From positions 32,001-96,000 of the IMG/VR virus record IMGVR_UViG_3300036861_001052: a stretch of DNA of 64,000 nt; one strand, given 5' to 3'. The translations under genes and the position numbers were made by a program. This document shows, piece by piece, positions 2,836 through 62,132 of the stretch. The notes below the pieces were generated by a model. The model saw only the letters and a list, made by a program, of their open reading frames with translations. It was not told the DNA's origin and did not search any database. How positions within the stretch are numbered: position 1 is the first letter of the stretch; the number at the start of each line of letters is the position of its first letter. This DNA comes from a virus.

Positions 2836-3882
<1,047 letters not shown>

Positions 3883-5250: not shown

Positions 5251-5251
<1 letters not shown>
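4511..5251 (-). CDS. GT-A fold glycosyltransferase (family 2-like)
   Basis: IIVVPTRG, YVLTLEDD (DxD-like), VNGIGMGCALWR, TQDLYFC, VRVGH. Confidence 0.85.
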
Positions 5252-6933
<1,682 letters not shown>

Positions 6934-6976
6934 TTATTCTCCGTTAAAATAGACTACCAGAACTTCTCCGGGCCTT

Positions 6977-7312: not shown

Positions 7313-7333
7313 GCTCTCTCCTTTTTCACTTCC

Positions 7334-9163: not shown

Positions 9164-9171
9164 GTCATCGG

Positions 9172-11483
<2,312 letters not shown>

Positions 11484-15468: not shown

Positions 15469-15469
15469 C

Positions 15470-15673
15470 ATGATCGATCCGGAGAAAAGAAAGGCCGACT
15501 ACTACGCGCGCAAATGCTCCGGGCGCTGCGTCGTGTACGGCTGCCCCAACCCTCAAGCAGAAACGTTCCGGTGCGCCCATCACCAAGAGCTCAGTCGGCT
15601 GCATTCGCGCCGGCACAATCAAAGGAAACGACATGGCCGTTCCTCTCGTGCTTCAGTGGTCGATTCATTCTAG
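15470..15673 (+). CDS. Small Cys/His-rich hypothetical protein
   Basis: CxxxC...CxHH pattern, follows the previous stop directly. Confidence 0.45.
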   Translation: MIDPEKRKADYYARKCSGRCVVYGCPNPQAETFRCAHHQELSRLHSRRHNQRKRHGRSSRASVVDSF

Positions 15674-23716: not shown

Positions 23717-25155
23717 CGGGCGCTCTACCTCGTAGGGCCACGTGGTGGCAGTGATTTTCTTGATCCTATGGACGGGGATGCAGCGGAGCGTGGGCGAGCC
23801 CCACCTCCAGAAGCCACGCTTGGTGGCCTGCTCGAGAGCGAGGTCGATCAGATCCTCTGCGAGCTCGGGCTCTCCGTTCTCGATGCGCCCCTTGAGCACG
23901 CACGTCTCGCGCGAGCCGTCGTCGAGCGTGAGCACGAAGTGCACCTCACCGACGTCGACTTTTTCTGCCGCGAACATTACCGCCCGCGCGGCGTCGGCGA
24001 ACAAGGGCGCGGTCACCATGTCGTCGGCAAGCCTCTCGGCCGCCGTCCTCTTCTTCCACGGCCACATCAGTGTTCTCCGATCCACTTCTGAACGAGCTGC
24101 AGGCGCTTGAGCTCGCGCTCCAGCCAGCTATTCCAGTAGTAGTCACACTGCTCGCCCGACGGAAACCGGTACCAGATGATGCCCGTGTCGGAGCGATACC
24201 TCCGTCCGTCAGAGAACTCGAGCTCCCACTCGTCGTCGACCTTCGAAAGGCCGATCGCCCGCGGGGAAGAATCAGGAGAACCGTCGCGACGCACCTGATC
24301 GAGGAGATTGCCTACGAAGACGCCGCACAAGAACGCGATAAAAAACTCTAACCACATCATGCGTCCCCCAAGGTCACCCAGTGCGGGAGCCGTTCGAAGA
24401 GCTCGACGAGCTCGGTGACGATGCGTTCGCTGACGTCGGTGCGCGGCACGTCCCACTGGTAACGCCACGGAAGGCCTGTCGACGTGTCGACGAGCTGGCA
24501 CTGCGGGATCGCCCCCGGGACGTACACATCGAGAATCTTCGGCAAGTTCCAGCGGGCAAGCTCCGGCTCAGGCTCCCGGAGCCAGAGCCACGAATGCTCC
24601 ACGAACCCAAACCTCCCGTCACAGACCGGGAGCTTCAGCATCCGGCCGACGGCGCGCGCAAGCTCGTGGCACCGGATCGGCTGCCTGGTCTCTTCGTCGA
24701 GGTACGGCGCCACGCGCACCATGCGCTCGGCGCGCTCGCGCGCGAAGAGCTCCTCGCCCGTGAAGATTTCTGCCGCTGCGTACCCGATCATGATCGCTTC
24801 CCCTAGAACGCTGCGAGCCAGCCGACGAGAAGCGCGACCGACGCCACGCAAACCTGCAAGATGCCAACCTCCAGCGGGCCCTTATCGTTTGTGGGGGCAG
24901 AGGCGCGGGCCGTCAGAAAACCCAGGAACACACTGAGGCCCACCGCGTGACCGAGGGACAACGGCGGTGCATGAAAGACCGGCGCCACGTGCCACTGCCA
25001 GAGCTTCATCGCCACGAATCCCTGGTAGAAGGTCACCGGCACGATGAACAGGAAGGCGATGAACACCTCGGCGCCGTTGTTCGTCCTGGCGGACTTCGAG
25101 AGGACGTGGGCGGCCACCACCCCGCTTGGATCTCCGACAAACTTCGGACTGACCA

Positions 25156-25708: not shown

Positions 25709-26608
25709 TTACTTCTCCTTTGGCAGAGCCCGGAAACCCGGGTCTCGGTAGTCCTGGATCACGCGCCACGCCTCCATCACCGCCTCGAACTGCGGCCTGG
25801 TAGCGTCGCTGCCGTGCCGGTCGGGGTGGTACTCGCGCGCGAGCTCCTTGAAGCGGCGCTGCGCAGTCTTGAAGAACGCCTCCCCGGGCGCTTCCGTCGT
25901 GCTCTTCGGCGGATCGAGATGCAGCGTACGGCACGCCTCCACGAGCGCCCGGCGCGTGATCGCGACCGAGAGCGGGACCTGCCGGCGGCGCCGGGTGCCG
26001 ATCCTCGACTGGAATTCGGCGAAGACGACCTTGAGATCCGTCTCGAGCCGCTCGATGTCCGTCGCGAGCTCCATTTCGGAGTGCCCCATGAGTCGCTCCT
26101 GGACGTAGCCACGGATGAGGCCCCGGAGCTCGATCCAAAACTGTCCCTCCGACGTCTTGCCGCTCGAGTCCCGCGGCGGACGCTCCGAGACCGCGCTCTT
26201 GCTCTTCAGCCACGCGGGGCGGCGGACGATTTTTCCAGCGACATGGTAGATGTTTGGGCGAGCGTCGTACTCGGCGAGCACGCGCGACAGCACTTCCTGA
26301 TCGGTCTCGCCGCGCCCCTTGGTTTTCTTCACGGTGTGCGCGAGCTCGCAGGCCGTCCGGAGCATCATGTCCTCCTCGACCCGCTGCCAGAGCACCTCGA
26401 AGGCGTCGCCGTAGCCGAGCAGGCGCTGCCGGAGCGCGATCGGATAGCGCTGCGTGCCGAGCACGGTCGCCACGTAGTCGGCCCGGTCGCGCTTTTCCGT
26501 GCGCACCTCGAGCTTGCCGTAAAGGTTCCACATCTCGAGCTCGATCTCCGCGCGGGCGCGTTCGGTGTGGGCGCTGGCGTGGTCACGGATGAGCTCGGAG
26601 AGGGTCAC
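25709..26608 (-). CDS. Protein with C-terminal DnaJ (J) domain
   Basis: AQRRFKELAREYHPDRHGS...FEAVMEAW; GTG start 26608. Confidence 0.8.
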   Translation of the reverse strand: MTLSELIRDHASAHTERARAEIELEMWNLYGKLEVRTEKRDRADYVATVLGTQRYPIALRQRLLGYGDAFEVLWQRVEEDMMLRTACELAHTVKKTKGRGETDQEVLSRVLAEYDARPNIYHVAGKIVRRPAWLKSKSAVSERPPRDSSGKTSEGQFWIELRGLIRGYVQERLMGHSEMELATDIERLETDLKVVFAEFQSRIGTRRRRQVPLSVAITRRALVEACRTLHLDPPKSTTEAPGEAFFKTAQRRFKELAREYHPDRHGSDATRPQFEAVMEAWRVIQDYRDPGFRALPKEK

Positions 26609-27194
26609 GGCTGGTCCTTTCGGCGCTTTCGCTCTTCGGACGTCAGGTCCACCGCGATCCCGTGGCCCACGTAGTGACCGGCGAGAGCAGCGGCGGCCAT
26701 ACAAAGGAGCGTGTAGCGGTTCACGGCAGCATCGTTCCCTTCGCTCGCTCTAGCTCCAGATCGAGACCGAGGGCATCGTGAATACGCGCCCGCGTGTCGA
26801 GCCCGCCACGATGGTAGGCCCAGGCCATCCAATTCAGCAGAAGCTTGGCCTGCGCCTCGCTCAGGCGAACCTCCGCGCGCATCACCGCACCATCGGGCCA
26901 CGTCACGAACCAATGGTTTTCCGGATTCCGGCGACCTTCGCATTCTCGCGAGGCCGTGAAGCCCATATCGCAGAGCACCGTCTTCTTCGGCTTTCCTGGT
27001 ACGCGAATTCTTTTTAGCTTCGCCACTCTTCTACGGTCCTTTCTCGTCGACCTTCTTGTAGCCGTCGACGGCGAGCCAGCCGACTCCGACGTAGCCCAGC
27101 GTGATCCACAGAAACCCGATCCACGGAGCCGGGGCCCACGGCGACAGAAGCCCCGCCATCGCGAACGCCATCGGAAAGATCCATTGCGCGTCCT

Positions 27195-27698
27195 TCATTC
27201 CCACGCCTTTCGGAGCGCCTCGAGCTCGCGAGCGAGCGCATCTTGCTTCTCGCGGATATGGACGACGTTCTCGAGGATCGCCGCCGTCATCTTGACGAGC
27301 GCGTCGAGTGCGGTGGCGTCGTCCCCGGCTTCCTCGACCGACGGCGCCTCTTCTGCTTCAGCGGCCTGGTCCGGCGGCACGAAGATTTCGGTAGCGCCCG
27401 CGCTTCCCGGCCAGAGGAGCGTGCCGACCTCGTTCGCGAGGATGATCTGCTCGAGACCGGGCGTTGCCGTGTAGACCTTCGCCGCTTTTCCGAATGCCGA
27501 GATCTCAGGCGAGAGCGTCACTGTCACGAGGCCCTGGTCCTCGAGTCGCCGGAGGAGCCTCGTGCGCCAGCTCCAGCGAAAGTTCGGGCCGAAGAGCTCG
27601 CGGCCCGTCGCGCCGCGGTCTCCGGCGGCGCGGAGATACTCGAGCGCCTTCGTTGCTTCCGCGAACTGCTGAGCGGCTCTGGCAGCGTAGTACCTCAC
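27195..27698 (-). CDS. Putative winged-helix DNA-binding protein with coiled-coil tail
   Basis: ALEYLR...ATGRELF...LLRRLEDQGLV...KVYTAT resembles wHTH. Confidence 0.5.
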   Translation of the reverse strand: MRYYAARAAQQFAEATKALEYLRAAGDRGATGRELFGPNFRWSWRTRLLRRLEDQGLVTVTLSPEISAFGKAAKVYTATPGLEQIILANEVGTLLWPGSAGATEIFVPPDQAAEAEEAPSVEEAGDDATALDALVKMTAAILENVVHIREKQDALARELEALRKAWE

Positions 27699-28046: not shown

Positions 28047-28751
28047 ATGTCGAGGTTTACGGTAGAGCTCACGCTCGACGAGGTCGGCGACGCGAGGCGG
28101 GCGGCAAAGAAGCGCGGCGACGCGGGACCGATGCGCGCGATCGGAGAGCAAGCGATCGCTGTCGCGTGCCGGCGGCGCTGGGAGGGCACGTTGGTAAACT
28201 TCGAGAAGTGGGACTCGTGGAAGAAGATCGGACGCGTGCCGCGGTGCATCGAAGTGCGCTTGGTCGACGCCGTGATTTCAGATCTGGATCTGGTTCAGGA
28301 TACCCCGGAGGACACTGTCGTCGTGCTCGTAGGTACCCGGGAAGCGCCCCGCTTCCTCCTCATCGGGTGGGCGTTCGCGGGGGATGTGCAGCAAGACAAG
28401 TACTGGCGAGAGGACGAGCGGAAGTTCGTGATGCCGCACATGAATCTTCGAAGTTGCTACGAGCTCAAGCGGCAGCCGAGAAAAACCGGCAGGCGCCTGC
28501 ACCGGAGCGATCCTGCTGACGATTTCGCTGGATACGGCGGCTGGCCAATGATGCTCGACACCGACGATGGGCGGCACCCGAAGTTCTACGGAAACCTCAT
28601 CCGATCGAAGTGGTCGCTTCCCTGTAGGCGTTGTCAGACGCTCGTCGTCGCGGGACAGCTTCAAGGTGGCAACTATCGCACCGGAACCATTCATGGAGAT
28701 CCAGAGGACTGCGGCTTCAAGATCGACGAGCCGAAAAAATCTTCTGCGTGA
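28047..28751 (+). CDS. Hypothetical protein, possible degenerate restriction-endonuclease-like fold
   Basis: AAGGA RBS; AIGEQAIA...IEVR...LIGW pattern; CxxC near the C-terminus. Confidence 0.5.
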   Translation: MSRFTVELTLDEVGDARRAAKKRGDAGPMRAIGEQAIAVACRRRWEGTLVNFEKWDSWKKIGRVPRCIEVRLVDAVISDLDLVQDTPEDTVVVLVGTREAPRFLLIGWAFAGDVQQDKYWREDERKFVMPHMNLRSCYELKRQPRKTGRRLHRSDPADDFAGYGGWPMMLDTDDGRHPKFYGNLIRSKWSLPCRRCQTLVVAGQLQGGNYRTGTIHGDPEDCGFKIDEPKKSSA

Positions 28752-28794
28752 GGCTTGACTAGATATAGACGTACCGGGTAAGGGACGAGATCCC

Positions 28795-29004
28795 ATGTCC
28801 GACACCATTGAGTCCATGCCGATGAAGAAGAAGCAGAAGCGGGCTCCGCGCAAGCGGCCGCTGTTCATGATCAAGTTCGACCACGAGGACCGAGCGATGC
28901 TCGATGAAGCGAGCCGGGTGGAGAAGCTCACTCGGAGCGACGTCCTTCGTCGAGCTCTTCGCGCCTATTACAGAAAGCTCCGCATCGACAAGATAGCCAG
29001 CTAA
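28795..29004 (+). CDS. Ribbon-helix-helix (CopG-like) regulator
   Basis: FMIKFDHEDRAMLDEASRVEKLTRSDVLRRALRAY. Confidence 0.75.
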   Translation: MSDTIESMPMKKKQKRAPRKRPLFMIKFDHEDRAMLDEASRVEKLTRSDVLRRALRAYYRKLRIDKIAS

Positions 29005-29029
29005 GCCCTGCGGCAAAGGAAACGACGTA

Positions 29030-30016
29030 GTGGCTTGGCAGATCGACCCAAAGATCGCTGACGACCCGTGGTTCATGGAGGACCTCAACCGGGAGACGCA
29101 GGCGCTCTTCACATTTTTGCTGATCTGTCCGCTCCGGACGACGCTTCCCGGTCTCTACAAGAACATCAGCGTCGCGATCGTGGCCGACACGTGGAAGCAG
29201 CCGTTTGCCGAGGTCCAGCCTATTTTTCAGAAGCTTCTCGAGCCCTGCAGCGAGGGCCGGCGGCACGTGCTCTACGACGGCCGTGCCCGCGTTCTTCGGA
29301 TCCCGAGCGCACCGAAGTGGAATCACGGCCCTGGCGACAAGATCCTAGCGGCCTGGTTTCGGTGCTGGTGCGCCGTTCCGGACTGCGACCTCAAGTGGGA
29401 TCACCTCGACGGGATCCGGGACGCGGTCAATCTCCACAACCCGAAAGTTGCAGCCAGGTGGCAAACCACCTTCGAGCCGCTCCTCGCGAGGCGGGCTGCT
29501 GGGCTGAGGTCTGCGCGCCCCATCGACCTCCGCGCGCTGACGAACGCCGTTCGAACGCCGACCGAACGTTCACCGAACACTGATAACGGTCACTCGGCCG
29601 GCCCGACGCTCATCTCAGAATTATCTCCTAGGTATAATACTTCCGTTCCTACTGGACCAGAACGCCGTTCGAACGGCGTTCCTATGCCTCTGGATCAGGA
29701 TCTGGATCAGGAAGAGGATCAGGATCTGGATCTGGATCAGGATCCGCGGCGTTCGAACGCCGTTCGAACGGCGTTCCCAGAAAGCTCTAAGATTTTAAAT
29801 CTATCTAACTCCTCAGAACCAGAGGGAAAAGAGCCACGTAATGGCAATGGAAGGGTTTCGAAAGACGACAGGGAGGCTTTCGGAGGAAGTGACGGCGACC
29901 AGGTCGACCCTGAAAGCCACCCTGCGACAGCAAGCGCAGAACGCCGGCGGGAGTTCGAATTGGCTGGCTGGAAACTGTCCCCGATTGGCGTCTGGATCCC
30001 CCCAGGGTTTTACTGA
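29030..30016 (+). CDS. Phage replication initiator-like protein
   Basis: N-terminus resembles phage replisome organisers (DDPWF..L...QALFTFLL...PGLY); DQDLDQEEDQDLDLDQD linker; sits upstream of loader and DnaB. Confidence 0.7.
   Translation: MAWQIDPKIADDPWFMEDLNRETQALFTFLLICPLRTTLPGLYKNISVAIVADTWKQPFAEVQPIFQKLLEPCSEGRRHVLYDGRARVLRIPSAPKWNHGPGDKILAAWFRCWCAVPDCDLKWDHLDGIRDAVNLHNPKVAARWQTTFEPLLARRAAGLRSARPIDLRALTNAVRTPTERSPNTDNGHSAGPTLISELSPRYNTSVPTGPERRSNGVPMPLDQDLDQEEDQDLDLDQDPRRSNAVRTAFPESSKILNLSNSSEPEGKEPRNGNGRVSKDDREAFGGSDGDQVDPESHPATASAERRREFELAGWKLSPIGVWIPPGFY
29542..29810. repeat. Putative replication origin: palindromic iterons, GGATCA/GGATCT repeats and AT-rich tract
   Basis: Perfect 22-bp palindrome GAACGCCGTTCGAACGGCGTTC at 29660-29681 and 29755-29776, partial copy at 29542; AT-rich TAAGATTTTAAATCTATCTAA follows. 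Confidence 0.65.
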
Positions 30017-42273: not shown

Positions 42274-44801
42274 TGACGGAGCAGGACGCGGCATTGCCGC
42301 ATGAAGGCGCGAGGGAAGTCGACCGGCAGCTTCTTGCCGAGTGCAAGCGCTACAGCGTCCCGTACAAGTCGTGGCTCGAGATGTCGGTCGGAGAGCGGGG
42401 AGCGGTCAAGGCGAAGTACACCCGTGGGCTTCGTCACGAAGCGAAGCGCCGCGGCATCGACGACGACGAGTTCGTGAAGATGACCGACGAGGAGCGCGAC
42501 CGGGTGCGAGAAGAGTACCCGGAGAGGCCGCCCGGAAAGAGAAAGCCGCGGACTGTCGATGAGGTTGCTCAGGCGCACGCCGCGCGCGTTGCGGACGTGG
42601 TGGATCAAGATCTCTCGTCGCCGGGCCCCTACTCGCCTGCATCCGAGGTGCCGGCGATCGAGGAAGACCCCGCGCGGCGCGACAGGCCGACGCTCGACGA
42701 AGTCGTGCCTGTCGAAAACAAGGATCTGGTCGGATGGGAGACACCGCGGAATCTTCGTGACGTCTTCGCGCGCTACACGATCGGCGACGGCCAGCACTAC
42801 ATCCGGGTCGAGCGCATCGAGCCGCGAGTCTTCCAGCAGATCGCTACCTCGGGCTACCTCGGCGAGATCCGGGAGCCGCTCACGGAGGAAGAGTTTCACG
42901 CTTTCTACGGCGGGCGGATCTACGAGCTCAGCGTCTACGGTCCCGACACGCAAGGCAGGCGCGATCCCGTGACGGGGCATCCTCTCATCAAACCGAAGAC
43001 GAAGCCCTTCCGGTACACGGTGCCGATGTATCCCCCGAATCTCGCCGTGCTTCCGGGCACGAATCCGACGAAGAAGAAAAACGGAGATCCCATGCATCCC
43101 TTCTCCATGTTCCAGTCGCCTGTCCTTCCGACGACGCCGGCGGACGCATCCATGCACAAGTCGAACCTCGACTTCGTAGCGCAGGTCATCGAGCGCTCGG
43201 CCGAGGAGAGTCGTGAGCTACGAAAAGAGCTTCAGTCGAAAGGATCGGCCGACGTGGACGTCCTGCGTGTGATTGGTGACCAGAGTAAGAGCGTCGTCGA
43301 GCAGGCAAACCGCGCCTCTGAGGCGCGCGAGCGAAGCCTCCTCGACCAGCTCGAAAACGAACGCGAGCAGCGGCGCGAGCTCGCCGCAAAGCTCGACAAG
43401 CTCCAGGAGCAGATGTCGGCCGAGCCCCGGCAGAGCCCCGTGAAGGACGCGGTCGAGCTCATGAAGGTGACGAACCCCGCGCAGACCGCCGAGCAGCATC
43501 TCTCCCGCCAGAACGAGTCGCACCGCTCCGAGGTCGCGAGCCTGAAGGAAAGCCACCGGGACGCCATCGAGACCTTGAAGTCGACGCATCGCGACGCGAT
43601 CGAGACTATGAAGAGCCGCCAGGAGGAAGAGCTCAAGCGTCTTCGCGAGCGCGCGGACGAAATAGAGCGAAGCTACGGGCGCCGGCTCGAGGACGCGGAA
43701 AGGCGCCAGCGAGAGGTAGCACAAGAGCACAAGGATCAGATGGAGCAGCTCCGGCGGGACGAGCGGGCGGCAGCCGATCAGCGTGTGAAGGACACGGAGA
43801 AGCGTTTCGAGGACAGGATCAGCGATATCAAGCTCCAGCAGGAGCGCGAGCTACGAATGCAGGAGGAGCAGCACAAGACGCGGGTCGAGACGACCAAGAG
43901 CAATCTCGAGCTCCAGCTCTCGAACCAGAAGGAGCGCGTGAAGCGTCTCGAGGACGAGGTCAGCGAAGCGCGCGCGGAGCTCGCCGAGGCGGGAGATCCA
44001 GTGGCGGTCGTCGAGAAGCAGGAGAAGATCGCAAAGTCTCTCGGCTGGAGGAAAGAAGAGAAGGACGGGCCGCAGACGGCCGGGGAAAGATTTGCGGCGA
44101 CGGTCGGCATCGGCCTCGGCAAATCACTCGAGGACATGGGGACGTGGCTCCCGAAGGTTGCTGAGGCGTTTCGAAAGCAGCCGCTCGGGGGCCCGCCGGT
44201 TGGCGTGCCGCCGGGTCTGCCCGGGCGAAGGCCGGGGCCGCCGGGGCAGCGAGGACCGGGACCGGGACAGCGGCGAGCGGTCGCGTGGGCGACGCAGGGA
44301 TCGATCCCCATCACCGATCACCGCCCGAGCATGCCGCCCGAAGCGCCGCCGGCCGCGCCGCCTCCTCAGCCAGAGGCAGCGCCCGCGCCGCAGCAGCAAG
44401 CCGCGCCTCCGCCCGAGGCGCCTCCGCCAGCGGCCGCTCCGGCCGAGCCCGCGCCTTCCAATGGTGCGGCGCCGTACCCGGGAGGGATCCCGGAAATTCC
44501 GATGGAGTTCGTGCAGGCGTTCCGGACGGAAGTGGAGATGTCGATCGACGGCGGACGGAGCCCAGACGAATTCGCACGGCTCTTCGTCGAGCGGTTTCCC
44601 GATCCCGCGCGCGAGCTCGTCACGCTCTACAAGGCCGAAGATCTCATGAAGCTCGTCGAGTCCCTCCCGAACGGCCCCTCGAGCAACATCCTCCGCCGTG
44701 ACGGAAAGCGCTGGGTAGAAAAGCTCTGGGCCGCGATCCCGATCGAGTACGCAAAAATGGCGAGCGCTGCAGCGGCGGCTCAGGCATCATCCGGCGTATG
44801 A
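42273..44801 (+). CDS. Large coiled-coil, Pro-rich protein (candidate membrane/assembly scaffold)
   Basis: 842 aa; about 300 aa coiled coil, amphipathic TVGIGLGKSL segment, Pro/Ala linker, helical C-domain. Confidence 0.75.
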   Translation: MTEQDAALPHEGAREVDRQLLAECKRYSVPYKSWLEMSVGERGAVKAKYTRGLRHEAKRRGIDDDEFVKMTDEERDRVREEYPERPPGKRKPRTVDEVAQAHAARVADVVDQDLSSPGPYSPASEVPAIEEDPARRDRPTLDEVVPVENKDLVGWETPRNLRDVFARYTIGDGQHYIRVERIEPRVFQQIATSGYLGEIREPLTEEEFHAFYGGRIYELSVYGPDTQGRRDPVTGHPLIKPKTKPFRYTVPMYPPNLAVLPGTNPTKKKNGDPMHPFSMFQSPVLPTTPADASMHKSNLDFVAQVIERSAEESRELRKELQSKGSADVDVLRVIGDQSKSVVEQANRASEARERSLLDQLENEREQRRELAAKLDKLQEQMSAEPRQSPVKDAVELMKVTNPAQTAEQHLSRQNESHRSEVASLKESHRDAIETLKSTHRDAIETMKSRQEEELKRLRERADEIERSYGRRLEDAERRQREVAQEHKDQMEQLRRDERAAADQRVKDTEKRFEDRISDIKLQQERELRMQEEQHKTRVETTKSNLELQLSNQKERVKRLEDEVSEARAELAEAGDPVAVVEKQEKIAKSLGWRKEEKDGPQTAGERFAATVGIGLGKSLEDMGTWLPKVAEAFRKQPLGGPPVGVPPGLPGRRPGPPGQRGPGPGQRRAVAWATQGSIPITDHRPSMPPEAPPAAPPPQPEAAPAPQQQAAPPPEAPPPAAAPAEPAPSNGAAPYPGGIPEIPMEFVQAFRTEVEMSIDGGRSPDEFARLFVERFPDPARELVTLYKAEDLMKLVESLPNGPSSNILRRDGKRWVEKLWAAIPIEYAKMASAAAAAQASSGV

Positions 44802-45577
44802 CACCGACCATCGCGATTCTGAACCGGACCACGATCCTCGACGACGCGGCCTTTCATCCGGTCGTCTCCGCGCTTCAAAAGCAGGTCTCGGGAGACTTCG
44901 CGCCGCTCTGGAGGCGAGACGCCTCGCTCGTGCACGTGGCTAAGAGCGAGACGCCGCCTCCGGGAGCCTGGCAGGTCGTCGTCTCAGACACGATCGCGAT
45001 GGCGGGCGCGCTCGGGTATCACGATTTCACGCATGCGGGCCTTCCGATCAGCAAGGTCGCGGCCAAGACTCACGGCAAGTGGACGGTGACGTTGTCCCAC
45101 GAGGTGCTCGAGATGCTCGGAGACCCCGACATCGTGAGGGCGGCGTTCATACAGACGAGCCCCTTTCGGGCGCTCGTCTACGCCTACGAGAATTGCGATC
45201 CGGTCGAGGACGATCGCTTCGGCTACGACATCGACGGCGTGACTCTCTCGGACTTCGTGACCGAGGAGTGGTTCGAGCCGGGCAGGTTTGGTGTGAAGTT
45301 TTCGTTTCGAGACACGGTCAAGCGTCCGCTGACGCTCGCGCCAGGCGGCTACATTTCTGTCTACAGGACGCCGGGCATCGGGCGCTGGATACAAGTCACG
45401 GCACGCGAGGACACGTACGCCGTGCACGAGGGCAATGTCAGCGAGATCACGCGCATGTACGCCGGGGAGCAGCACGGCTCCTACACGAATCTCTACCGGA
45501 ATCTCCCGAACGTCGGCTCCCGCCGCGAGCGCCGGAACCGGTCGCGCATCGAGTGGATGCGAAGCGACACCCCGTGA
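44798..45577 (+). CDS. Zincin-like metallopeptidase (HExxE type)
   Basis: ALGYH...VTLSHEVLEMLGDP...YENCDPVE...LSDFV. Confidence 0.65.
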   Translation: MTPTIAILNRTTILDDAAFHPVVSALQKQVSGDFAPLWRRDASLVHVAKSETPPPGAWQVVVSDTIAMAGALGYHDFTHAGLPISKVAAKTHGKWTVTLSHEVLEMLGDPDIVRAAFIQTSPFRALVYAYENCDPVEDDRFGYDIDGVTLSDFVTEEWFEPGRFGVKFSFRDTVKRPLTLAPGGYISVYRTPGIGRWIQVTAREDTYAVHEGNVSEITRMYAGEQHGSYTNLYRNLPNVGSRRERRNRSRIEWMRSDTP

Positions 45578-46655: not shown

Positions 46656-46840
46656 GGGTTCTGGCCGGGAATTGCCCCGCCGGCGCCTCTACTTGAGCTT
46701 CGGCCGGTGTCCCGGTAGAGTGAAGGCTGCAGGGCGCTCCCGACGCCGGCCTCGGGAAAGTTGTGCGCTCGCTCCTCCACCATCAACCGGCGACCTTCAC
46801 ACCAGGCTATCCTGGTGCTCTCGGTTGGTATGGCGAGCCG

Positions 46841-47383
46841 ATGGCGGGGACGCTCTCGAGAAATCCCCCGAACACGCTCGCGGGCTTTCAGGGGCACCCC
46901 GACACGCTTCGAGCGATGGTCCGCGCAGCGCACGGACCGCGGGGCGAGCAGAGCATCCTCGTCCGTAGCGTGACCGAGGAAGTGGTCGGGGACCTTCAGC
47001 CGAAGGACTACCTCGGTGAGATCTTGGCGATTCGCTACTGGGTGACCGAGCACATCCGGTACGTGAACGATTCTCTCCACGTCGAGATCGTGAAAGACCC
47101 GCAGCGAGTCATCGAAGAGATCCTCGCGCGCGGCCGCGCGGCGGAGGACTGCGACGGCATCGCTCTCATGATTGCCGTCATGTGCTTGCAGGTCGGACGC
47201 GTGGCGGAGTTCGTGGTGGTGGGCTTCGGCGAGCCGGGGCACTACAGCCACGTCTTCGTGAGAGTGAAGGAGCCACGGAGCGGCCAATGGATCGTGTGCG
47301 ATCCGGTTGCGGGCTCCGACGAGCGCGGCATGCTCGACCGCGTGACGACGTTTTACACGAAGAGCCTAGACGAGGCGGCCTAA
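46841..47383 (+). CDS. Transglutaminase-like cysteine protease
   Basis: Catalytic triad pattern EDCD / SHVF / VCDP, plus IRYVND...E.VKDP; ATG 46841. Confidence 0.85.
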   Translation: MAGTLSRNPPNTLAGFQGHPDTLRAMVRAAHGPRGEQSILVRSVTEEVVGDLQPKDYLGEILAIRYWVTEHIRYVNDSLHVEIVKDPQRVIEEILARGRAAEDCDGIALMIAVMCLQVGRVAEFVVVGFGEPGHYSHVFVRVKEPRSGQWIVCDPVAGSDERGMLDRVTTFYTKSLDEAA

Positions 47384-55289: not shown

Positions 55290-56335
55290 CCTACAGCGGG
55301 CTAGGATTCGGCTTCTTCACGGAGCCGTGCGGCATCAACGTGGAAGGCACGGATCATTTCGTGGCCGGCCCGACCTATCAGGCGCTCGAGACCGTGGCGC
55401 AGGACACCGTCACCGTGCTCCTTTCGGGGCACGGCAACGTGCAGCTCTGCGGAAATCTCCTCCCCTACGTGGCTCCGGCTCCAGGAGTAGCGGCCGTCTT
55501 CGGGGCGCACGAGCAAACGGCGCGGCTGATTGCAGCGACCGTGCTCGCTTCGCTCATGGAGCAAGAGAGGAGGAAGGCCCACGGGACTCGAGCCTCGACC
55601 CGCATGCTCGCCGAGAGGCTCGTCCCGGAGATCGTGCAGACGCTGACGCACAACGGAGACCCCGCGGCCTGTCAGATCGAGTTCGAGGCGTCGTTTCGGA
55701 ACTGGTCGGGCCTCTCGGCGCTGAAAGTGCCGACGACGGTCTCGAAGACCGGCTGGTGCGAGAAGAGCCTCGCTCTGCCGTGGGATAGTGCCGGCCACAT
55801 CCGGTCGTGCGAGGCGCAAGCGATCTGCAAATCTGTCATCGGCGCGGGCGGGGCGATCCAGTACGTCACGAGCCCTCCGCCGGCTCCGACCGATCCGCGC
55901 GTGGCCGCGAGCGCGCCCGGGACGACGCCGTCGCCGCCTCCGACGAAAGCGGAGATCGAGGCGGAAGTCCGCCGGAAGATGGTGGCGAGCGGAGAGACCG
56001 TAGCGGACCGAGAGAACAAGCAGGAGTTCACAGAGCTCGCGGCGTACTTGAAGGCGCTCGGAGAGGCGCGGCGCTACCTCACGATGGCGCTCGGGATCCC
56101 GGACAAGTCGACCGACGCGGCCGTAGCCGCGGCGCTCGGTCACGAGGGGATCGCCACGGCAGAGGTGCTCGACTGGTTTTTGGGCTGTAACTTCGAGCCC
56201 GGCTGCTTTCGCGAGCAGATGAATCTCTCGCTCGGCGAGGCGAGGCGCTACTCGAGAGACACGCGCGCGAAGATCGCTGTCGCCGTGGGAGGAGTCCTCG
56301 CCGTGGGATTTCTCCTCTTTAGGTGGAGACGCTGA
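55286..56335 (+). CDS. Cys-containing tail-anchored protein
   Basis: Starts MTYSGLG; TM + RWRR. Confidence 0.72.
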   Translation: MTYSGLGFGFFTEPCGINVEGTDHFVAGPTYQALETVAQDTVTVLLSGHGNVQLCGNLLPYVAPAPGVAAVFGAHEQTARLIAATVLASLMEQERRKAHGTRASTRMLAERLVPEIVQTLTHNGDPAACQIEFEASFRNWSGLSALKVPTTVSKTGWCEKSLALPWDSAGHIRSCEAQAICKSVIGAGGAIQYVTSPPPAPTDPRVAASAPGTTPSPPPTKAEIEAEVRRKMVASGETVADRENKQEFTELAAYLKALGEARRYLTMALGIPDKSTDAAVAAALGHEGIATAEVLDWFLGCNFEPGCFREQMNLSLGEARRYSRDTRAKIAVAVGGVLAVGFLLFRWRR

Positions 56336-56694
56336 TGCCGCCGCCACCACTCTTGAAGGCGCCGAGCTGGGAGCAGGGGCGCCCCGCGCGAAACCTCGCG
56401 TACGTTGCCGTGCTTTTACAGGAAGCACACATCGACCCGAAGAAGATCCCGAAAGGTCAGGTCATCTTTGCGCTGGCAACGCCGTACGAGCAGCGCGGCG
56501 TGACGGGCAGAGACATCGAGCGCTGGGCGCTCGAATGCGATCCGGCTAAAAAGCCCGCCTGGGATCCGGTCGAGTGCTTCCGAAAGAAGGCCCGGGCGGC
56601 GATGGCGCCACGGCCAGGGCTCGGCACCAAGGTCGCGCTCATCGCCGGAGCCTCGTTTGTGGCGGCTTTTGGCCTTGCGCGCTGGCTCCGGTAG
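56335..56694 (+). CDS. Tail-anchored protein
   Basis: PGLG directly before TM + RWLR. Confidence 0.68.
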   Translation: MPPPPLLKAPSWEQGRPARNLAYVAVLLQEAHIDPKKIPKGQVIFALATPYEQRGVTGRDIERWALECDPAKKPAWDPVECFRKKARAAMAPRPGLGTKVALIAGASFVAAFGLARWLR

Positions 56695-56722
56695 CCCTTC
56701 CGGCCCGAGGGAAACGCCGGTG

Positions 56723-56751
56723 TTGACGGCGTTTCGGGCAGAGGCTAGTCT
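56723..56751 (+). promoter_or_regulatory. sigma70-type promoter of the core/capsid operon
   Basis: TTGACG-17-TAGTCT; the -35 box is flanked by a GAAACGCCG/CGGCGTTTC inverted repeat. Confidence 0.65.
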
Positions 56752-56815
56752 CAGTTCTTAGTTAGCGGGCGCCTTCCCGACGCCTCGCGACCCCTAGTGG
56801 TTTGCGAGAAGAGTC

Positions 56816-59272
56816 GTGAGAGGCAAGCACAAAGCGTACGGTCGAGCGTTTCCAATCCGGGAAGCGGACGTCGGCTCGTACAAGGTAGCGCGTCACCGTC
56901 CCTATCGAGCGAATCCGATGGGCGTGACGACGCTGTCGAGCGTCAACGGCCCGGGCGCGTATTCCGCGCGTGCGGCCTCGAGTGGGCTTTCCCGCGCCGA
57001 GCGTCTGCGGCGCGCGCGCCGGCTCATGGAGAACCGAAGCATGCAAGGACACAAGGTGCACAGGGCCAAGTTCGTACGGCGCATGAAGGCAAACAGCGGT
57101 CGGATGACCTCGAACGCTGCCCGACGCCGCGCGGGCAAACGCCTCGCTGCGTTTCAGGCAGCTCGGCGTCGTGGGCTTTCGAAGGAAGCGGCGATGCGGA
57201 GCGCGTCCCGGAAGTTTCCGAAGAGTCGCCGGCGTGGCTACCGCCGAAACGAGGGACCGGCTCAGGTCGCTTCCCCCGCCTACCGGTCGGGCCACGAGCG
57301 GATCTACGGGAAAAAGGCTCAGCGAAGGCGCGCCGCCGCGGCAAAGCGGAAAGCGCATCGCGCCGAGGTCGCCGCGCGTAAGCGCGCTCGTAAGGCTGCC
57401 GCTCGCGCGAAGAAGCGCGCAGCGATGACGCCGGAAAAGCGCGCTTCGCTCCGAAAGCGCCGCCGCAGGGCGAGCTTTCCTAAGCAGTACAAGAAGGTGC
57501 GGGGCCGAAGGGGCAAGATGCACCGAGTGCGAGTGGCGTACGGACCGTACCGCCGCGCGCGCCTTTCCGATCCGAGGTCAGGCCGAAAGCGCCTCTCCTA
57601 CACCTATCGAGGCAAACGCGGCAAACGCCGCAAGATTCCGCAGTGGGCCGTTGCCGGAGCAGTCAGTGCGCGCGACTACAAGACGTCGAGCGTGTACGGG
57701 CGCGCCCGGGAGCGGATCGCACGGCGTCGTAAACGTGCTGCCGCTCGCGTAGAGCGCAGCGGAGATGCGTTCGTTCCGAACGCGGGAGCAAGAAAAGTGG
57801 CAAGACGAAGAAAGCGAAAAGGGCACAAGCGTTCCCGCCGGGGACGTCGCAAGGTGAAACGGACGCGCGGTCGCGCGCGGCGCCGATCGGCGGGTCACAC
57901 CGTCCGCAGGCGCAAGAGGCGCAAGTCAGCGAGCCGCCGGACAGCCCGGAAGCACCGTGCGAGCCCGCATCGCCGGAAGAAGCGTCGTGCGCACGCGAAG
58001 AGGCGTTCCACGCGCCGCCGGTCCAAGCGCCGGTCGCACCCGCGTCGGATCGGTCGCCGCAAGGTGAGGCGCCTGAGAAAAGGCATCTACCTGGTCGCGA
58101 ACCGCCGTCGCCGTCGCTCGCGCCGCCGCTACGAGGAAAACCGCAGGGTCCGCCGGCATCGTCGTCGGAAGCTCGCGGCAAATCCGCGTCGCAGGCGTCG
58201 CTCGCGGCGTCACGTCGCAAACCGCAGGCGCCGAACGCATCGGCGTCGGAGCTACCGTCGTAACCGGAGCTACCGCCGTAACGGCTTCATGGGCGACTTG
58301 AAGACGCTCGCGAAGATGGGCTTCCTGGTCCTCGGCGGCTTCTTCCTCCACAAGGGGATCACGGGCGGAATCATTCGGGCGCTGACGTCTACGGACGCCT
58401 CGACCGGAGCGATGACGTTCGCCTCGCTGCCGATGATCGGAGCCGACGGCAAACCGACGGTTCTCGCGACTTGGCAGAAGCCGCTCGTCGGAGGCCTGTT
58501 CGGCGGTCTCGGCATCTTCGGGATCTCCAAGCTCCCGATGAAGTCGGACACCCGGAATGCGCTGTCAGCGGGCGTGGTGACGTCGTTCCTTCAGAGCCTC
58601 GTCCACACGATCCTGACTGTCGCAAACCAGCCGGAGGTCCTCTCCTATCTCGAGGGTTACCAGAACAGCGCAGCGTACTCGCTCCGCGGTACCCGAGGGA
58701 AACGGCGCCGTCACCCGATGCGAGGCCTCGGCGTCGCACGGAACGCGACGTCGATCATGCCGCACTACGCACCTGTCGGACAGTTCCAGCAGGCCGCAGC
58801 CGGCATGGGCGAGTACTTCGCGGCTCAGAGCGGCATGGGTGAGTACTTCGCGGGTCCCGGCGTCGAAGGCGTCGGTCACTACGAGAAGGCTGGCCCCTTG
58901 GCGCTTCAGCCCTCGACGAGCCGGATGGGTAACCTTCCGATCGACGACGGCATTCGCCCCGACTCGAACCTCGACCACGTGATGGATCTCGCGGAAAGCG
59001 CGGCCGGTCTCGGCCAAGGTTTCCGTCAGGCCGCCGCGGGAGTCGGGGCGGGCCCGGGTTACCGGCAGGCAGCTGCCGGTATGGGCGAGTACTTCTCGGC
59101 TGCCCCGCAAGACGGCGGCTACAAGGAGTTCTCGGTCCCGACGCAGTCGCAGTGGATCCCCTCGGGGCCCCTCTGGGCCGGCACGATGAGTGCCGACGCT
59201 GCGTACACGGAGAGCGAGCTCCCGGCTGGGATCCTCCAGGGTCCTGGCGGAAACGGAGTGCTCTCGGGCTGA
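56816..59272 (+). CDS. Protamine-like Arg/Lys-rich core protein fused to a membrane domain and GMG-repeat tail
   Basis: About 490 aa extremely R/K-rich, then 2-3 hydrophobic helices, then repeated (AA/QS)GMGEYF; lies directly upstream of the capsid gene. Confidence 0.8.
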   Translation: MRGKHKAYGRAFPIREADVGSYKVARHRPYRANPMGVTTLSSVNGPGAYSARAASSGLSRAERLRRARRLMENRSMQGHKVHRAKFVRRMKANSGRMTSNAARRRAGKRLAAFQAARRRGLSKEAAMRSASRKFPKSRRRGYRRNEGPAQVASPAYRSGHERIYGKKAQRRRAAAAKRKAHRAEVAARKRARKAAARAKKRAAMTPEKRASLRKRRRRASFPKQYKKVRGRRGKMHRVRVAYGPYRRARLSDPRSGRKRLSYTYRGKRGKRRKIPQWAVAGAVSARDYKTSSVYGRARERIARRRKRAAARVERSGDAFVPNAGARKVARRRKRKGHKRSRRGRRKVKRTRGRARRRSAGHTVRRRKRRKSASRRTARKHRASPHRRKKRRAHAKRRSTRRRSKRRSHPRRIGRRKVRRLRKGIYLVANRRRRRSRRRYEENRRVRRHRRRKLAANPRRRRRSRRHVANRRRRTHRRRSYRRNRSYRRNGFMGDLKTLAKMGFLVLGGFFLHKGITGGIIRALTSTDASTGAMTFASLPMIGADGKPTVLATWQKPLVGGLFGGLGIFGISKLPMKSDTRNALSAGVVTSFLQSLVHTILTVANQPEVLSYLEGYQNSAAYSLRGTRGKRRRHPMRGLGVARNATSIMPHYAPVGQFQQAAAGMGEYFAAQSGMGEYFAGPGVEGVGHYEKAGPLALQPSTSRMGNLPIDDGIRPDSNLDHVMDLAESAAGLGQGFRQAAAGVGAGPGYRQAAAGMGEYFSAAPQDGGYKEFSVPTQSQWIPSGPLWAGTMSADAAYTESELPAGILQGPGGNGVLSG

Positions 59273-59447
59273 GCTGTAGCGCTTAACACCGCCGGCCCCG
59301 GTAGGACGAGCGCGCCTCACCGCTCTCGAGCCCCGGGGCAGCGGTGTCAGAACCGACCGGCGGAAAAGCCCCGAAAGGGGCCGGGACGACACCCGACCAA
59401 AACGGATCTTCCGGTCACCCACCCGTTTCCAAAGGAAACATACCAAC

Positions 59448-61028
59448 ATGGCAAAACTGACGAACGTCAGAGAGCGTGTGCATCACGCGGACGTTCGGTG
59501 AAAGCGAAAGCTGGTGCCCCTCGGCGGTAACGCCGGGGTGATAACTGGGTGAATCAAACCGTTTCGTGATGAGAATGAGAACTTCAGACACAGACATCGC
59601 CTGGCTTGCTGGAATCGTGGACGGCGAGGGCTGCTTCTCCGTGAAGCGTCCCATCGTTCGCAAGACCTACAAGAAGGGGCGAGTGACGAGCTACCAAGTG
59701 TGGCTGGTCGTCTGTAATACGTCCGAGCCGATGGTACGTCGGGTCACGGAGATCTTCGGATCTCTCGGGATCGGGCACCAGCCGGTGAGGCGCGTCTGGA
59801 AGGGAAAGAAGGCAACTCGGTGGCAGTACTGGGTGCACGTCGCGCGAAAGCACGAGCTCTTGCGTCTGACGGAACTCCTCCTGCCTTTCCTCGTGGCCAA
59901 AAAAGACGAGGCCGAGATCGTGCGCTGGTTCCTATCGAGGGCTTGCAGCACGAGGCAATACGTTCCCACTCTTCTCGATCGTACCGCGCTCGAAGCGATG
60001 GCCACGATCAAGCGACACGGCGGGGAAGCCCCTGCTGAGGTGCGAGAGCTCCTTCGCGAGGTAATCCCGAGCCAAGCCGTTTCTGGGATCCGTGCGGCCC
60101 ACGGATTGGAGACGGAAGGCGTAGAGACTAGGTCGGTGACTCCCAAGAATAACCCGACCCACGAGTGCCCGGCGCCCCTCCACTTGGTGGGGTGATGAGA
60201 TAGCCCGACACTCCGGGAAACCGGAGAGCCCGCATAAACAGCGGGCATGACAGAAGCAAGCAGCCGTTTTACGACACGCTCATCCGAACCTCCGGTCTCG
60301 GCGGTTCCATCCCCAAGGTGAATCAGCGGACCTCGCTGTTCACGAACCAGGCTCGCCAGGACGACATCAACGCCCTGACGAACCTGCCGAACGGTTCGAC
60401 GCTCCCGTCCGACCAGAGCCACGTGACGCTCGCGCTTCGCGTGTTCATCTGGTTCCGCAATCCGCAGATCCGCGCAAGCGGCTTTGCGAACGGTGCGATC
60501 AAGAACAACGGCGACTTCTCCCAAGCGGGAGCGGCGGCGTTCTTCTCGCAAGGCGGAGTCGACCCGAACGGCGCGACCGCGGGCCCCGGCGCCTTCAACT
60601 ACCCGGGCTCGATCGAGGACGTCTACCGCCTGTACTGGCAGTCGGAAGAGCAGCTTCACTGGAGCTACGGCACCGGTGACAAGTTCTCGATCACGAACAT
60701 GCCGACGAAGTACTTCCCGGACGGCGGTGGCCTCTGGGGTGACCTCGGTGGCTCTTCGGATCTCATCCACTTCAACAACGGCACGCCGGACCACACGGCA
60801 ATTCTCCGGCTCGCGCGCGCGATCCTTCTGCCTCCCCGGCAGAACATCAAGTGCGCCGCCGAGATCGTGCCCTTGCCCGACGGTGGAAACGCCCAGATCG
60901 CTGGATCGACCGTGACCGGCAACGGCCGGAACATGCTGTCGCTCCAGGACAACCTGAACGCGACCGACGGGATCAACAAGGTGATTCAGTTCACCTTCGA
61001 CGGTCTCTTCGCCCGCGACGTTCAGTAG
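59448..61028 (+). CDS. Putative major capsid protein (jelly-roll type), spliced: 59448-59483 + 60261-61028, 267 aa
   Basis: AAAGGA RBS + ATG 59448; joined reading MAKLTNVRERVH|QPFYDTLIRT...LF...TNL..GSTLPSDQ; exon 2 has no in-frame ATG after TAG 60201; the capsid identity is inference from motif pattern and context. Confidence 0.7.
59484..60260 (+). ncRNA. Group I self-splicing intron (777 nt)
   Basis: Exon ends in U, intron ends in G; IGS GCTGGTGC (59510-59517) pairs GCAU (P1, U-G) and CAGC (P10); Q-like AATCCCGAGCCAAG, R-like GTAGAGACTA, S-like GAGATAGCCC; P9 CTCCGG-GAAA-CCGGAG. Confidence 0.9.
59566..60195 (+). CDS. Intron-encoded single-motif LAGLIDADG homing endonuclease
   Basis: DIAWLAGIVDGEGCFSV, LVVCNTS, LLPFLVAKK; 3' end reads through the intron core. 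Confidence 0.92.
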   Translation: MMRMRTSDTDIAWLAGIVDGEGCFSVKRPIVRKTYKKGRVTSYQVWLVVCNTSEPMVRRVTEIFGSLGIGHQPVRRVWKGKKATRWQYWVHVARKHELLRLTELLLPFLVAKKDEAEIVRWFLSRACSTRQYVPTLLDRTALEAMATIKRHGGEAPAEVRELLREVIPSQAVSGIRAAHGLETEGVETRSVTPKNNPTHECPAPLHLVG

Positions 61029-61139
61029 CTTCGAACGCAGGTTGATCGCGCGCCTGAGCCAAGCGCGGTACGGCACGGACGGCGGTTTCCCTCAAAAGAG
61101 CCGCCGTCCGGTACTCCTCACGGAGGCACGAAAAAAGAC

Positions 61140-62132
61140 ATGGCAAGTTGGGAACAGGTCATTCGAGACCTGCAGAACACGGCAGGCTTTGCCGCCGCAA
61201 AGGCGAAGGAAGCGATCGACAAGGCAGGCCGAAACGAGAGCGCCCTCGCGCTCGTCCGGCAAGAGCTCGAACGCGAGCAGCGCTCCATGCAAGCGCTCGC
61301 CGACGCGCTCGAAAAGGTCCAGGGCCGCGGCGCGGGCTACGGTAACGGTAACGTCGGCGTCGACGAGCGCGTGCGCTACATCGAGTCGATCCCGGGTCGC
61401 AGGATCCCGTTCGACTTCGTCGTGACGATTCCTATTTCTTCGAACTCGGTCTCGCAGGTCCAGGGCACGAAGACCGTGAGCCAGGACGGGCCGTTCGTGG
61501 CGGTTGCGCGCTACGCGGCGTTTCAGTCCGCGTTCCAGTTTCAACGGGTAGACCCCGTCACGCAGGAGAAGGCGGTCTTTCAAGGACGCTCCTTCGGCCG
61601 TTTTCGTCCGATGCACTCCATGTGGGACCTGAACGATGCCTCGACCGGCGTCTTTCAGCCGACGACCGGCATCGCTCAGCCGGGCACGGGCGCGCCGATC
61701 GTGGCGGCTCCCTCGAACATGTCGTCCTTCCGCACGATGGAAGGCGACTTCATCATCCAGATGCTGAATCAAGGCGCTGGCTACCCTCGCGACAATCAGG
61801 ACGGCGGCATTCCGAGCGCCTGGTACTCCGAGAGCATCAACAGCCCCTTCCAGCTCGGAGCCTTGGACTTCTTCGAGCGCGGCGAGACGATCCAGTGGAA
61901 GGTCACGCCGACGCACGTCAATAACCCGCCGGCAGGTAACCTTTCGGGTTACGCTGCGGGTGGCGTGTTCCCGTTCCTCGCGAGCCAGTACGACGTGCAC
62001 GAGGGCATCAACGACCAGCTCGATCCCGAGGCAACGAGCGATCCCATCACGAGGCTCCCCGACGGGATCTTGTGGATAGGGATGCACGGGATCAAGATCG
62101 TGCAGCCCCCCGGGCCGGTGAGGCTCACCTAA
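61140..62132 (+). CDS. Second putative capsid protein (N-terminal coiled coil + beta-rich domain)
   Basis: GGAGG RBS; IPFDFVVTI...TVSQDGPFVAV...FFERGETIQWKV...IGMHGIKI beta-strand pattern. Confidence 0.55.
   Translation: MASWEQVIRDLQNTAGFAAAKAKEAIDKAGRNESALALVRQELEREQRSMQALADALEKVQGRGAGYGNGNVGVDERVRYIESIPGRRIPFDFVVTIPISSNSVSQVQGTKTVSQDGPFVAVARYAAFQSAFQFQRVDPVTQEKAVFQGRSFGRFRPMHSMWDLNDASTGVFQPTTGIAQPGTGAPIVAAPSNMSSFRTMEGDFIIQMLNQGAGYPRDNQDGGIPSAWYSESINSPFQLGALDFFERGETIQWKVTPTHVNNPPAGNLSGYAAGGVFPFLASQYDVHEGINDQLDPEATSDPITRLPDGILWIGMHGIKIVQPPGPVRLT

Follow-up and report, generated by a model that had tools for sequence, protein, structure and literature searches.

The stretch of DNA analysed here, hereafter the window, comprises 64,000 nucleotides (bases 32001-96000) of the virus record IMGVR_UViG_3300036861_001052, which is complete at 138,414 bp with direct terminal repeats and probably represents a large uncultured tailless bacterial virus with an internal membrane. 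It carries a gene for an 818-residue protein whose Arg-rich N-terminal half is punctuated by a short motif, [Y/F/M/L/H]-x-x-N, i.e. an Asn preceded at position -3 by a bulky residue. This motif is specific in its residues, conserved among homologues and placed between the modules of the modelled structure, and the same genome encodes a transglutaminase-fold enzyme that is itself conserved. On the basis of sequence and modelled structure, we tentatively propose that the motif Asn might be endoproteolytic processing sites of a membrane-tethered core polyprotein, probably cut by this enzyme.

The protein is composed of a basic half (residues 1-489), three predicted membrane helices (residues 490-602) and a tail with Gly-x-Gly-Glu-Tyr-Phe repeats, and it has no match to any Pfam or PHROG family. 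Residues 1-491 (56816-58290) harbour 152 Arg, 46 Lys and 13 Asn, so that Arg and Lys together account for 198 of the 491 positions. Such an extremely basic composition is that of protamine-like and large cationic viral DNA-condensing proteins and this protein is a candidate virion protein, with DNA binding and condensation by the basic half as a predicted function. The gene is found in synteny with conserved beta-rich structural genes in all eight distinct related loci.

An earlier note on this DNA had reported that 12 of the 13 Asn of the basic half have Tyr, Leu, Met, Phe or His three residues upstream. The count was reproduced, with identical tetrapeptides (YRAN33, LMEN73, MKAN93, MTSN100, YRRN145, FVPN322, LVAN429, YEEN442, LAAN456, HVAN469, YRRN483 and YRRN489), the sole Asn outside the motif being that of SSVN44. 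Given a frequency of 0.126 for the Y/L/M/F/H class, finding it at -3 in 12 of 13 cases corresponds to a binomial P of 1.9e-10, and the narrower Y/L/M/F class (frequency 0.094; 11 of 13) gives 3.2e-10. Shuffling led to the same result, the highest count in 20,000 shuffles being 7 and thus below the observed one. As a post-hoc correction, every residue was set against every offset from -6 to +6 in the 818-residue protein, which amounts to 204 tests; the pair (Asn, -3) came first with a Bonferroni P of 6.5e-8, and none else survived, the next pair being at 0.66. A single pair of motifs stems from DNA duplication, namely an 18-nucleotide unit present twice in tandem at 58247-58282 and coding for RSYRRN twice. 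When this pair is collapsed, 10 of 12 Asn still carry the motif (P 2.9e-9). The codons of the -3 residue and of the two middle positions vary among the sites, and the signal therefore resides in the protein and not in the DNA; the suggestion that the motif might be a repeated packaging signal at the DNA level is thus unsupported. With regard to the residue that follows, Asn-Pro occurs at 2 of the 13 Asn and Asn-Gly at 2, one of the latter being the non-motif N44.

The motif was then followed across the protein family. A search with the C-terminal half retrieved two IMG/VR relatives (140 and 136 kb) and 109 proteins from a clustered database, an exhaustive HMMER search yielded 140 representatives diverging to <30% identity, and further DNA was obtained from seven more IMG/VR loci and four metagenome-assembled genome (MAG) contigs, while tblastn with the C-terminal half against the phage GenBank collection gave no match. 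Of 213 proteins, 155 had a basic half with definable limits. In these 155 homologues, 1053 of 2057 Asn are preceded by Y/F/M/L at -3 against 184.6 expected (5.7-fold), and 1139 when His is added to the class, so that the motif proposed from one sequence turns out to be conserved. This excess is the largest among 20 residues and 12 offsets, the next being 2.6-fold. The C-terminal halves of the same proteins contain 311 motif Asn out of 1382, versus 246 expected. The family sites are diverse, with 922 distinct nine-residue contexts among 1768 and 250 distinct tetrapeptides.

A profile of 1544 Asn from 110 homologues, covering positions -8 to +8, displays a bias at -3 only (0.97 bit), where Met (7.2-fold), Phe (6.2-fold), Tyr (5.1-fold), Leu (3.3-fold) and Val (2.1-fold) are enriched. 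Ile is scarce at this position, and Met, Phe, Tyr and His are favoured. Weaker excesses around the Asn concern Pro at -1 (3.6-fold), Pro at +1 (2.9-fold) and Gly at +1 (2.2-fold), which argue against recognition within an alpha-helix and fit an extended chain lying in the groove of a protease or of another peptide-binding protein. In one sub-lineage, represented by the IMG/VR loci L004, L006 and L010, His occupies -3 in 5 of 11, 20 of 42 and 12 of 26 Asn, respectively, which bears out the inclusion of HVAN469 among the motifs. L006 and L010 also have expanded repeat units of about 30 residues, each with several motif sites.

Individual sites were examined in an alignment of 34 sequences (Table 1). 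Aligned sites keep their Asn while the -3 residue varies within the class, as at N489 and N145, and no residue of the basic half is invariant except Asn489, at the border of the membrane module. A looser scan of this junction in 205 proteins detected an Asn 14-31 residues before a G-F-x-x-H-K anchor in 163 of them, with Y/F/M/L at -3 in 140 of the 163; of the remainder, 12 had no Asn in this range, 29 had no anchor and one was too short. Some homologues of about 300 residues start at or slightly before the junction and could be split genes or shortened gene calls. The number of units in the 13-14-residue array that precedes the junction differs among homologues.

The placement of the sites was analysed in an AlphaFold2 model built with the same alignment. 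Its overall predicted local distance difference test score (pLDDT) is 61, with three confident parts, residues 101-135 (module A), 154-315 (module B, with blocks mostly >90) and 490-612 (the membrane module). Modules A and B, 197 residues together, are devoid of Asn; the chance of this for 13 evenly spread Asn is about 0.0013. In the model, N100 and N145 bracket module A, N145 and N322 bracket module B, and N489 stands immediately before the first membrane helix (residues 490-523), where the earlier note had placed the last motif. N33, N145, N429 and N442-483 belong to stretches with pLDDT <50. The successive Asn delimit blocks of 33, 11, 29, 20, 7, 45, 177, 107, 13, 14, 13, 14 and 6 residues. 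The description of these blocks as protamine-sized thus fits the last few and not the whole set, which ranges from 6 to 177 residues, and the idea of many protamine-sized peptides is not supported, as the 45- and 177-residue blocks contain folded modules and a third block has 107 residues.

Module B is modelled as a long helix, a five-stranded sheet and further helices. Foldseek searches of the PDB with the model of the basic half returned nothing at E <= 0.001 (best E 1.6), and rows to the DNA-binding protein Cren7 at E of about 2 are too weak to count as evidence. A wide VIA-align search gave generic helical rows only (Z <= 6.8), mostly over the membrane helices. None of 8000 candidates scored in a search for a shorter stand-alone module B, which was probably swamped by Arg-rich words, and the ESM Atlas provided no usable match for residues 146-322 and unnamed viral clusters only for a neighbouring 330-residue protein.

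The C-terminal half deserves some remarks of its own. The M-R-G-L-G element (residues 638-642, 58727-58741), which follows the second basic patch, resembles the adenovirus protease substrate Met-Arg-Gly-Gly as presented in PMC4246237. The G-x-G-E-Y-F repeats (58800-59100) recur four times in an unrelated 171-residue tail-anchored protein encoded outside the window (G000 98835-99350), and may represent a shared docking element of membrane proteins. A G-x-G-A-Y element similar to these repeats is also present at residues 45-49, after motif 1.

We prefer the processing reading because the motif has a subsite-like form, with a fixed Asn and a class-conserved bulky residue three positions upstream, because the -3 residue varies within its class while the Asn stays fixed, and because an invariant site stands at the membrane junction and other sites bracket the folded modules. 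According to this proposal, the 818-residue protein would be a virion-core precursor anchored in the internal membrane, the N-terminal half of which would coat and condense the DNA, and [Y/F/M/L/H]-x-x-N would be an endoprotease recognition site in flexible linkers. We infer here a location in the virion core, the cutting of the sites, a cut after the Asn and the identity of the cutter. Cleavage would free an N-terminal piece of 33 residues, a 45-residue segment (residues 101-145) containing module A and a 177-residue segment (residues 146-322) containing module B, as well as the protamine-like block of 107 residues, four Arg-rich peptides of 13-14 residues and a remnant of six residues. A cut at the invariant Asn489 would detach all these pieces from the membrane module. 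The most likely cutter would be the lineage-conserved transglutaminase-fold protein, which harbours a Cys-His-Asp set.

This candidate processing enzyme, a 180-residue protein, matches PF01841 with 22.6 bits (E 1.3e-4; family cut-off 23), and many of its 293 homologues have a precomputed match to this family. Cys104, His137 and Asp154 are invariant in 25 sequences. The gene heads the structural gene block and has counterparts in all five related virus records, upstream of the structural genes wherever its position was checked (in G002, it ends just before the L005 stretch). The model of the protein has a pLDDT of 88.9, and Foldseek relates it with probability 1.00 and E from 2.9e-5 to 8.6e-4 to the transglutaminase-fold structures 3isr, 3kd4, 4u65 and 2f4o. 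The matches comprise the putative Cys proteases 3isr and 3kd4, LapG, PNGase, TglA, N-acetyltransferases and the pseudomurein isopeptidase PeiP. The candidate has the fold and the Cys-His-Asp set of LapG, a calcium-dependent protease of the periplasm whose adhesin substrate is cut at a di-alanine site, the Foldseek TM-scores being only 0.41-0.50 and the identity 12-15%. A conserved Cys-His-Asp set is thus seen on a modelled papain-like core. The sequence LSRNP, noticed at the beginning of this protein, is indeed present near its start (residues 31-35 of the 46763-47383 open reading frame (ORF), or 5-9 when counted from Met27); it is absent from all five homologues, and its interpretation as a self-processing site was rejected on this ground.

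Other proteases were sought in the genome. The earlier note had referred to two encoded proteases, and Pfam scans of 90 of the 181 predicted ORFs (the unscanned 91 being mostly short) retained a single protease-fold candidate, since they returned only the transglutaminase-like match and a weak match to a VanY/M15 cell-wall peptidase. The protein encoded at 44798-45577 has no Pfam family and no relatives in the five related virus records. In six-frame searches of the complete 138,414-bp record at E <= 0.1, no match was obtained with PF00770 (Peptidase_C5, adenain), for which none of 14 control genomes rose above the cut-off either, so that the sensitivity of this search is undemonstrated. Nor did the genome match, at the same threshold, PF01650 (Peptidase_C13, legumain), which recognised its control genome and leaves a host enzyme possible, or PF04586 (Peptidase_S78 prohead protease), which matched four control genomes, S77 not having been searched. 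Separate peptidoglycan-lytic genes are located outside the window, coding for an SLT transglycosylase (G000 14834-15490), a weak VanY/M15-like protein (27138-27623) and a protein with Amidase_2 and peptidoglycan-binding domains (28209-29207). Their presence indicates a bacterial host, and the transglutaminase-fold protein need not, but may, act as a lysin. The host labels of four related MAG contigs disagree (Pseudomonadota, Pirellulales twice, and Pseudomonadales), and no host is claimed here.

Several points weigh against processing by this enzyme. Cutting, the bond that would be broken and the identity of the enzyme are predictions from sequence and modelled structure. Only 51% of the family Asn (the 1053 of 2057 given above; 1139 with His) fit the motif. 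The motif Asn lie in coil or at most one residue from a helix end in 10 of 12 cases, compared with 59% of all positions (binomial P of about 0.07), which is a trend only. The PF01841 score of the candidate enzyme is below the family threshold, and its fold is shared by proteins that are no proteases and by isopeptidases of the cell wall (PNGase, PeiP, N-acetyltransferases). In papain-like enzymes it is typically P2 and not P4 that is read, so that the cut may fall elsewhere than after the Asn, for instance two residues past the bulky residue. Finally, the motif is confined to the family of the 818-residue protein, and virion maturation proteases known so far usually cut several substrates. In the other 180 predicted ORFs of the genome, 144 of 805 Asn fit the motif against 129.5 expected, i.e. 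no enrichment, and among the conserved Asn columns of nine neighbouring conserved families, 2 of 20 have a conserved bulky residue at -3, both inside beta-rich proteins; a genome-wide Asn code was rejected on these counts.

With regard to known systems, the adenovirus protease AVP has the consensus (M/I/L)-X-G-X-G and (M/I/L)-X-G-G-X. Adenovirus core protein VII is described as condensing the genome, and Met-Arg-Gly-Gly as a substrate of AVP (PMC4246237). The proposed processing would resemble that of pVII and pre-mu by AVP, in which basic DNA-condensing precursors are trimmed to small Arg-rich peptides and each short cleavage motif has a bulky hydrophobic residue at the fourth position ahead of the cut. 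The two differ in that Asn is the fixed residue here and Gly there, in that a single 818-residue membrane-anchored chain replaces several soluble proteins, and in the bacterial host, and they share no sequence homology. The sites are not of the AVP type, as Gly is absent from position -1 in all 12 motif sites, Gly follows only 2 of the 13 Asn and the genome gave no adenain match. In African swine fever virus (ASFV), processing sites are of the Gly-Gly-X type and are cut by a SUMO-protease-like enzyme. ASFV pp220 and pp62 are presented as polyproteins whose products form the core shell beneath the inner envelope (PMC10308890, PMC9910796). To the extent covered by these sources, they share with the present protein the principle of a large precursor, associated with an inner membrane, that gives several structural products between membrane and genome; their products are however not protamine-like, the host is eukaryotic, and there is no homology.

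Motifs with a fixed P1 residue are also found in tailed phages, namely Leu/Ile-x-Glu for the T4 prohead protease and Ser/Ala/Gly-x-Glu in phiKZ-like phages. The internal and inner-body proteins of these phages resemble the 818-residue protein as DNA-packaged proteins processed at short motifs; unlike it, they belong to tailed viruses with HK97-type heads, rely on an S77/S78-type protease with Glu at P1, and have no membrane anchor. A substrate of an HK97/T4-type S78 prohead protease was discarded, the genome having no PF04586 match. With respect to the Asn itself, the scissile bond follows Asn in substrates of legumain-type C13 endopeptidases and in the viral asparagine peptide lyases (nodavirus, tetravirus, reovirus mu1). 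The mu1 cut is at Asn-Pro, a dipeptide also present at site 33 here. To our knowledge, neither group requires a bulky residue at -3, and the peptide lyases cut once inside a folded capsid protein, whereas the sites considered here are many and mostly modelled as disordered. The absence of a PF01650 match in the genome led us to set aside a legumain-type substrate with a viral enzyme. A full-text literature search, with subscription journals outside its coverage, retrieved nothing on this group of viruses, on core proteins punctuated by Asn or on virion maturation proteases with Asn specificity.

The sequence evidence put forward for cleavage (specificity, class conservation, Pro/Gly context and linker placement) would serve equally for a short linear motif that is never cut. 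In such a case, the whole protein would tether the genome to the internal membrane, and the motif in its linkers would be a repeated docking site for a virion component such as the inner face of the capsid, a packaging factor or a chaperone. We consider this somewhat unlikely, although it is the alternative to be taken most seriously, as the confinement of the motif to one protein is easier to reconcile with a docking code complete in itself than with a maturation protease of general action. Ascovirus P64, an unusually large (64 kDa), very basic component of the virion of a large, membrane-containing DNA virus whose genome it condenses, provides a precedent for a large cationic DNA-condensing protein that is not cleaved (PMC6163548). 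P64 is reported to act whole, its abstract describes neither a punctuating motif nor a membrane module, and it has no homology to the 818-residue protein. The binding partner would however be hypothetical, an invariant site at the boundary of the membrane helix together with sites bracketing the modules is what polyprotein processing leads one to expect, and docking offers no easy account of an array of 13-14-residue units that all end in the motif.

It is also conceivable, but rather unlikely, that the motif is structural punctuation read by no enzyme or partner. The Asn would act as a helix cap or hinge and the bulky residue would pack nearby, which would break the Arg/Ala/Lys helices and allow the chain to fold back along the DNA. 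Helices are commonly capped by Asn, and in the model N489 and N322 are immediately before helices, N100 opens one and N73 is immediately after one. A uniform structural role is nevertheless missing, the sites being situated before helices, after them, within them (N93, N429) or in long coil (N145, N442-483). Moreover, the enrichment of Pro at -1 is incompatible with a last helix turn, and the preferences at -3, with Ile rare and Met, Phe, Tyr and His favoured, look like those of a binding pocket and not of generic packing.

Slightly less probable still is that the Asn is the target of another chemistry, either deamidation, transamidation or cross-linking by the transglutaminase-fold enzyme, or self-cleavage via Asn cyclisation, the reaction of the viral asparagine peptide lyases. 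The Asn is the fixed residue of the motif, it is followed by Pro or Gly at the sites counted above and by an excess of both residues at +1 in the family, and the conserved enzyme has a fold like that of transglutaminases and PNGase, enzymes with side-chain amides as substrates. Transglutaminases, however, use Gln and not Asn, self-cleavage at Asn needs a folded catalytic environment, and most of the sites are modelled as disordered; a strict requirement at -3 is typical of neither chemistry. A more specific version, in which the motif would be a sequon for the transglutaminase-fold enzyme acting on the Asn side chain, through Asn-Lys isopeptide links or deamidation, and the core would be covalently knitted at assembly or loosened at entry, appears quite improbable; were it true, it would amount to a chemical code written by an enzyme onto a protein that coats the genome, which is not known from any virus. 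Lastly, an artefact of composition, tandem duplication or a DNA-level repeat, which could be imagined for a low-complexity protein with one duplicated motif pair and repeat expansions in relatives such as L006, is effectively refuted by the shuffles, by the survival of the signal after correction for 204 tests and collapse of the duplicate, by the diversity of contexts, tetrapeptides and codons, and by the conservation of the sites in register across 34 divergent sequences.

Table 1. Features of the 818-residue protein and its candidate processing enzyme, with window coordinates. Site conservation is from the 34-sequence alignment A4 (non-gap rows counted); residue counts at -3 follow the one-letter code; aa, amino acids.
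Feature	Position	Strand	Conservation or basis
Candidate processing enzyme, 180-aa transglutaminase-fold protein; longest ORF from 46763	46841-47383	+	Pfam, homologues, model
Gene for the 818-aa protein	56816-59272	+	ORF and translation
Motif 1, YRAN33, followed by Pro, after conserved N-terminal segment	56903-56914	+	Asn in 28/28 rows; -3 = Y13, M7, L4, A2, V1, F1; pLDDT <50
SSVN44, non-motif, in conserved V-N-G-x-G-A-Y element	56936-56947	+	Asn in 28/29 rows; A/S/T at -3 in 26
Motif 2, LMEN73, right after predicted helix 60-72	57023-57034	+	Asn in 9/29 rows
Motif 3, MKAN93	57083-57094	+	Asn in 21/30 rows; -3 = M14, L6, V1
Motif 4, MTSN100, opens predicted helix 100-118	57104-57115	+	Asn in 4/19 rows
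Module A, aa 101-135, two predicted helices, between motifs 4 and 5	57116-57220	+	AlphaFold2 with A4, block pLDDT 82-92
Motif 5, YRRN145, linker of modules A and B	57239-57250	+	Asn in 23/30 rows; -3 = M10, Y6, L4, H2, V1; in stretch 138-153 with pLDDT <50
Module B, aa 154-315, predicted alpha/beta domain, no Asn	57275-57760	+	Block pLDDT 72-96
Motif 6, FVPN322, between module B and helix 323-344	57770-57781	+	Asn in 31/33 rows; -3 = F27, L2, H2; 319-321 pLDDT <50
107-aa block, aa 323-429, 58 Arg+Lys, 0 acidic residues	57782-58102	+	Ends in motif 7
Motif 7, LVAN429	58091-58102	+	Asn in 9/18 rows; -3 = Leu in 9/9
Array of Arg-rich blocks of 13, 14, 13 and 14 aa, ending in YEEN442, LAAN456, HVAN469 and YRRN483 (motifs 8-11)	58103-58264	+	pLDDT <50
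Motif 12, YRRN489, junction with membrane module	58271-58282	+	Asn in 34/34 rows; -3 = Y22, F8, M4
Membrane module, aa 490-612; predicted helices 490-523, 549-572, 577-602	58283-58651	+	Model, block pLDDT 75-89
C-terminal tail: second basic patch, conserved M-R-G-L-G element, G-x-G-E-Y-F repeats	58652-59269	+	Alignment consensus

The remaining genome shows further features. The most conserved structural gene, coding for a candidate capsid protein, is split (59448-61028), with its first 12 codons, MAKLTNVRERVH, at 59448-59483 and the rest from about 60261; the insert of about 780 nucleotides holds a LAGLIDADG-like ORF (59566-60195), and the gene is uninterrupted in the relative L002. An Rfam scan over 56000-61500 gave no matches at E <= 0.01, and hence none to a group I intron at the split. 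Four collagen-repeat proteins (Pfam Collagen, E 1e-26 to 4e-7) are encoded on the minus strand of the window at 2836-10641, in addition to two proteins of 918 and 488 residues, outside the window (G000 102171-106457), which have a common N-terminal domain and long G-P-T-G or collagen-like repeats. An apparent insertion sequence is also found outside the window (G000 22748-24160), where a 470-residue ORF combines a SWIM zinc finger with a DDE transposase domain (PF01609, E 5e-21). A GroES-type co-chaperonin (Cpn10, E 6e-27) and two proteins with sub-threshold DnaJ-domain matches are present as well, the loci being G000 107846-108370 and 99372-99992, both outside the window, and window positions 25709-26704.

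The motif offers a simple sequence signature for finding a protein family that has no Pfam or PHROG model, and this family includes a confidently modelled basic domain of 160 residues without match in the PDB searches performed here. If the sites are cut, a bacterial virus would mature its genome-coating proteins in the manner of adenoviruses, poxviruses and ASFV. Its recognition code, made up of a bulky residue, two free positions and Asn, would differ from theirs, the protease would possibly be of the transglutaminase fold, and the precursor would be anchored in the internal membrane. Such processing would provide a testable handle on how DNA is condensed and released in the large membrane-containing tailless bacterial viruses of about 95-180 kb.

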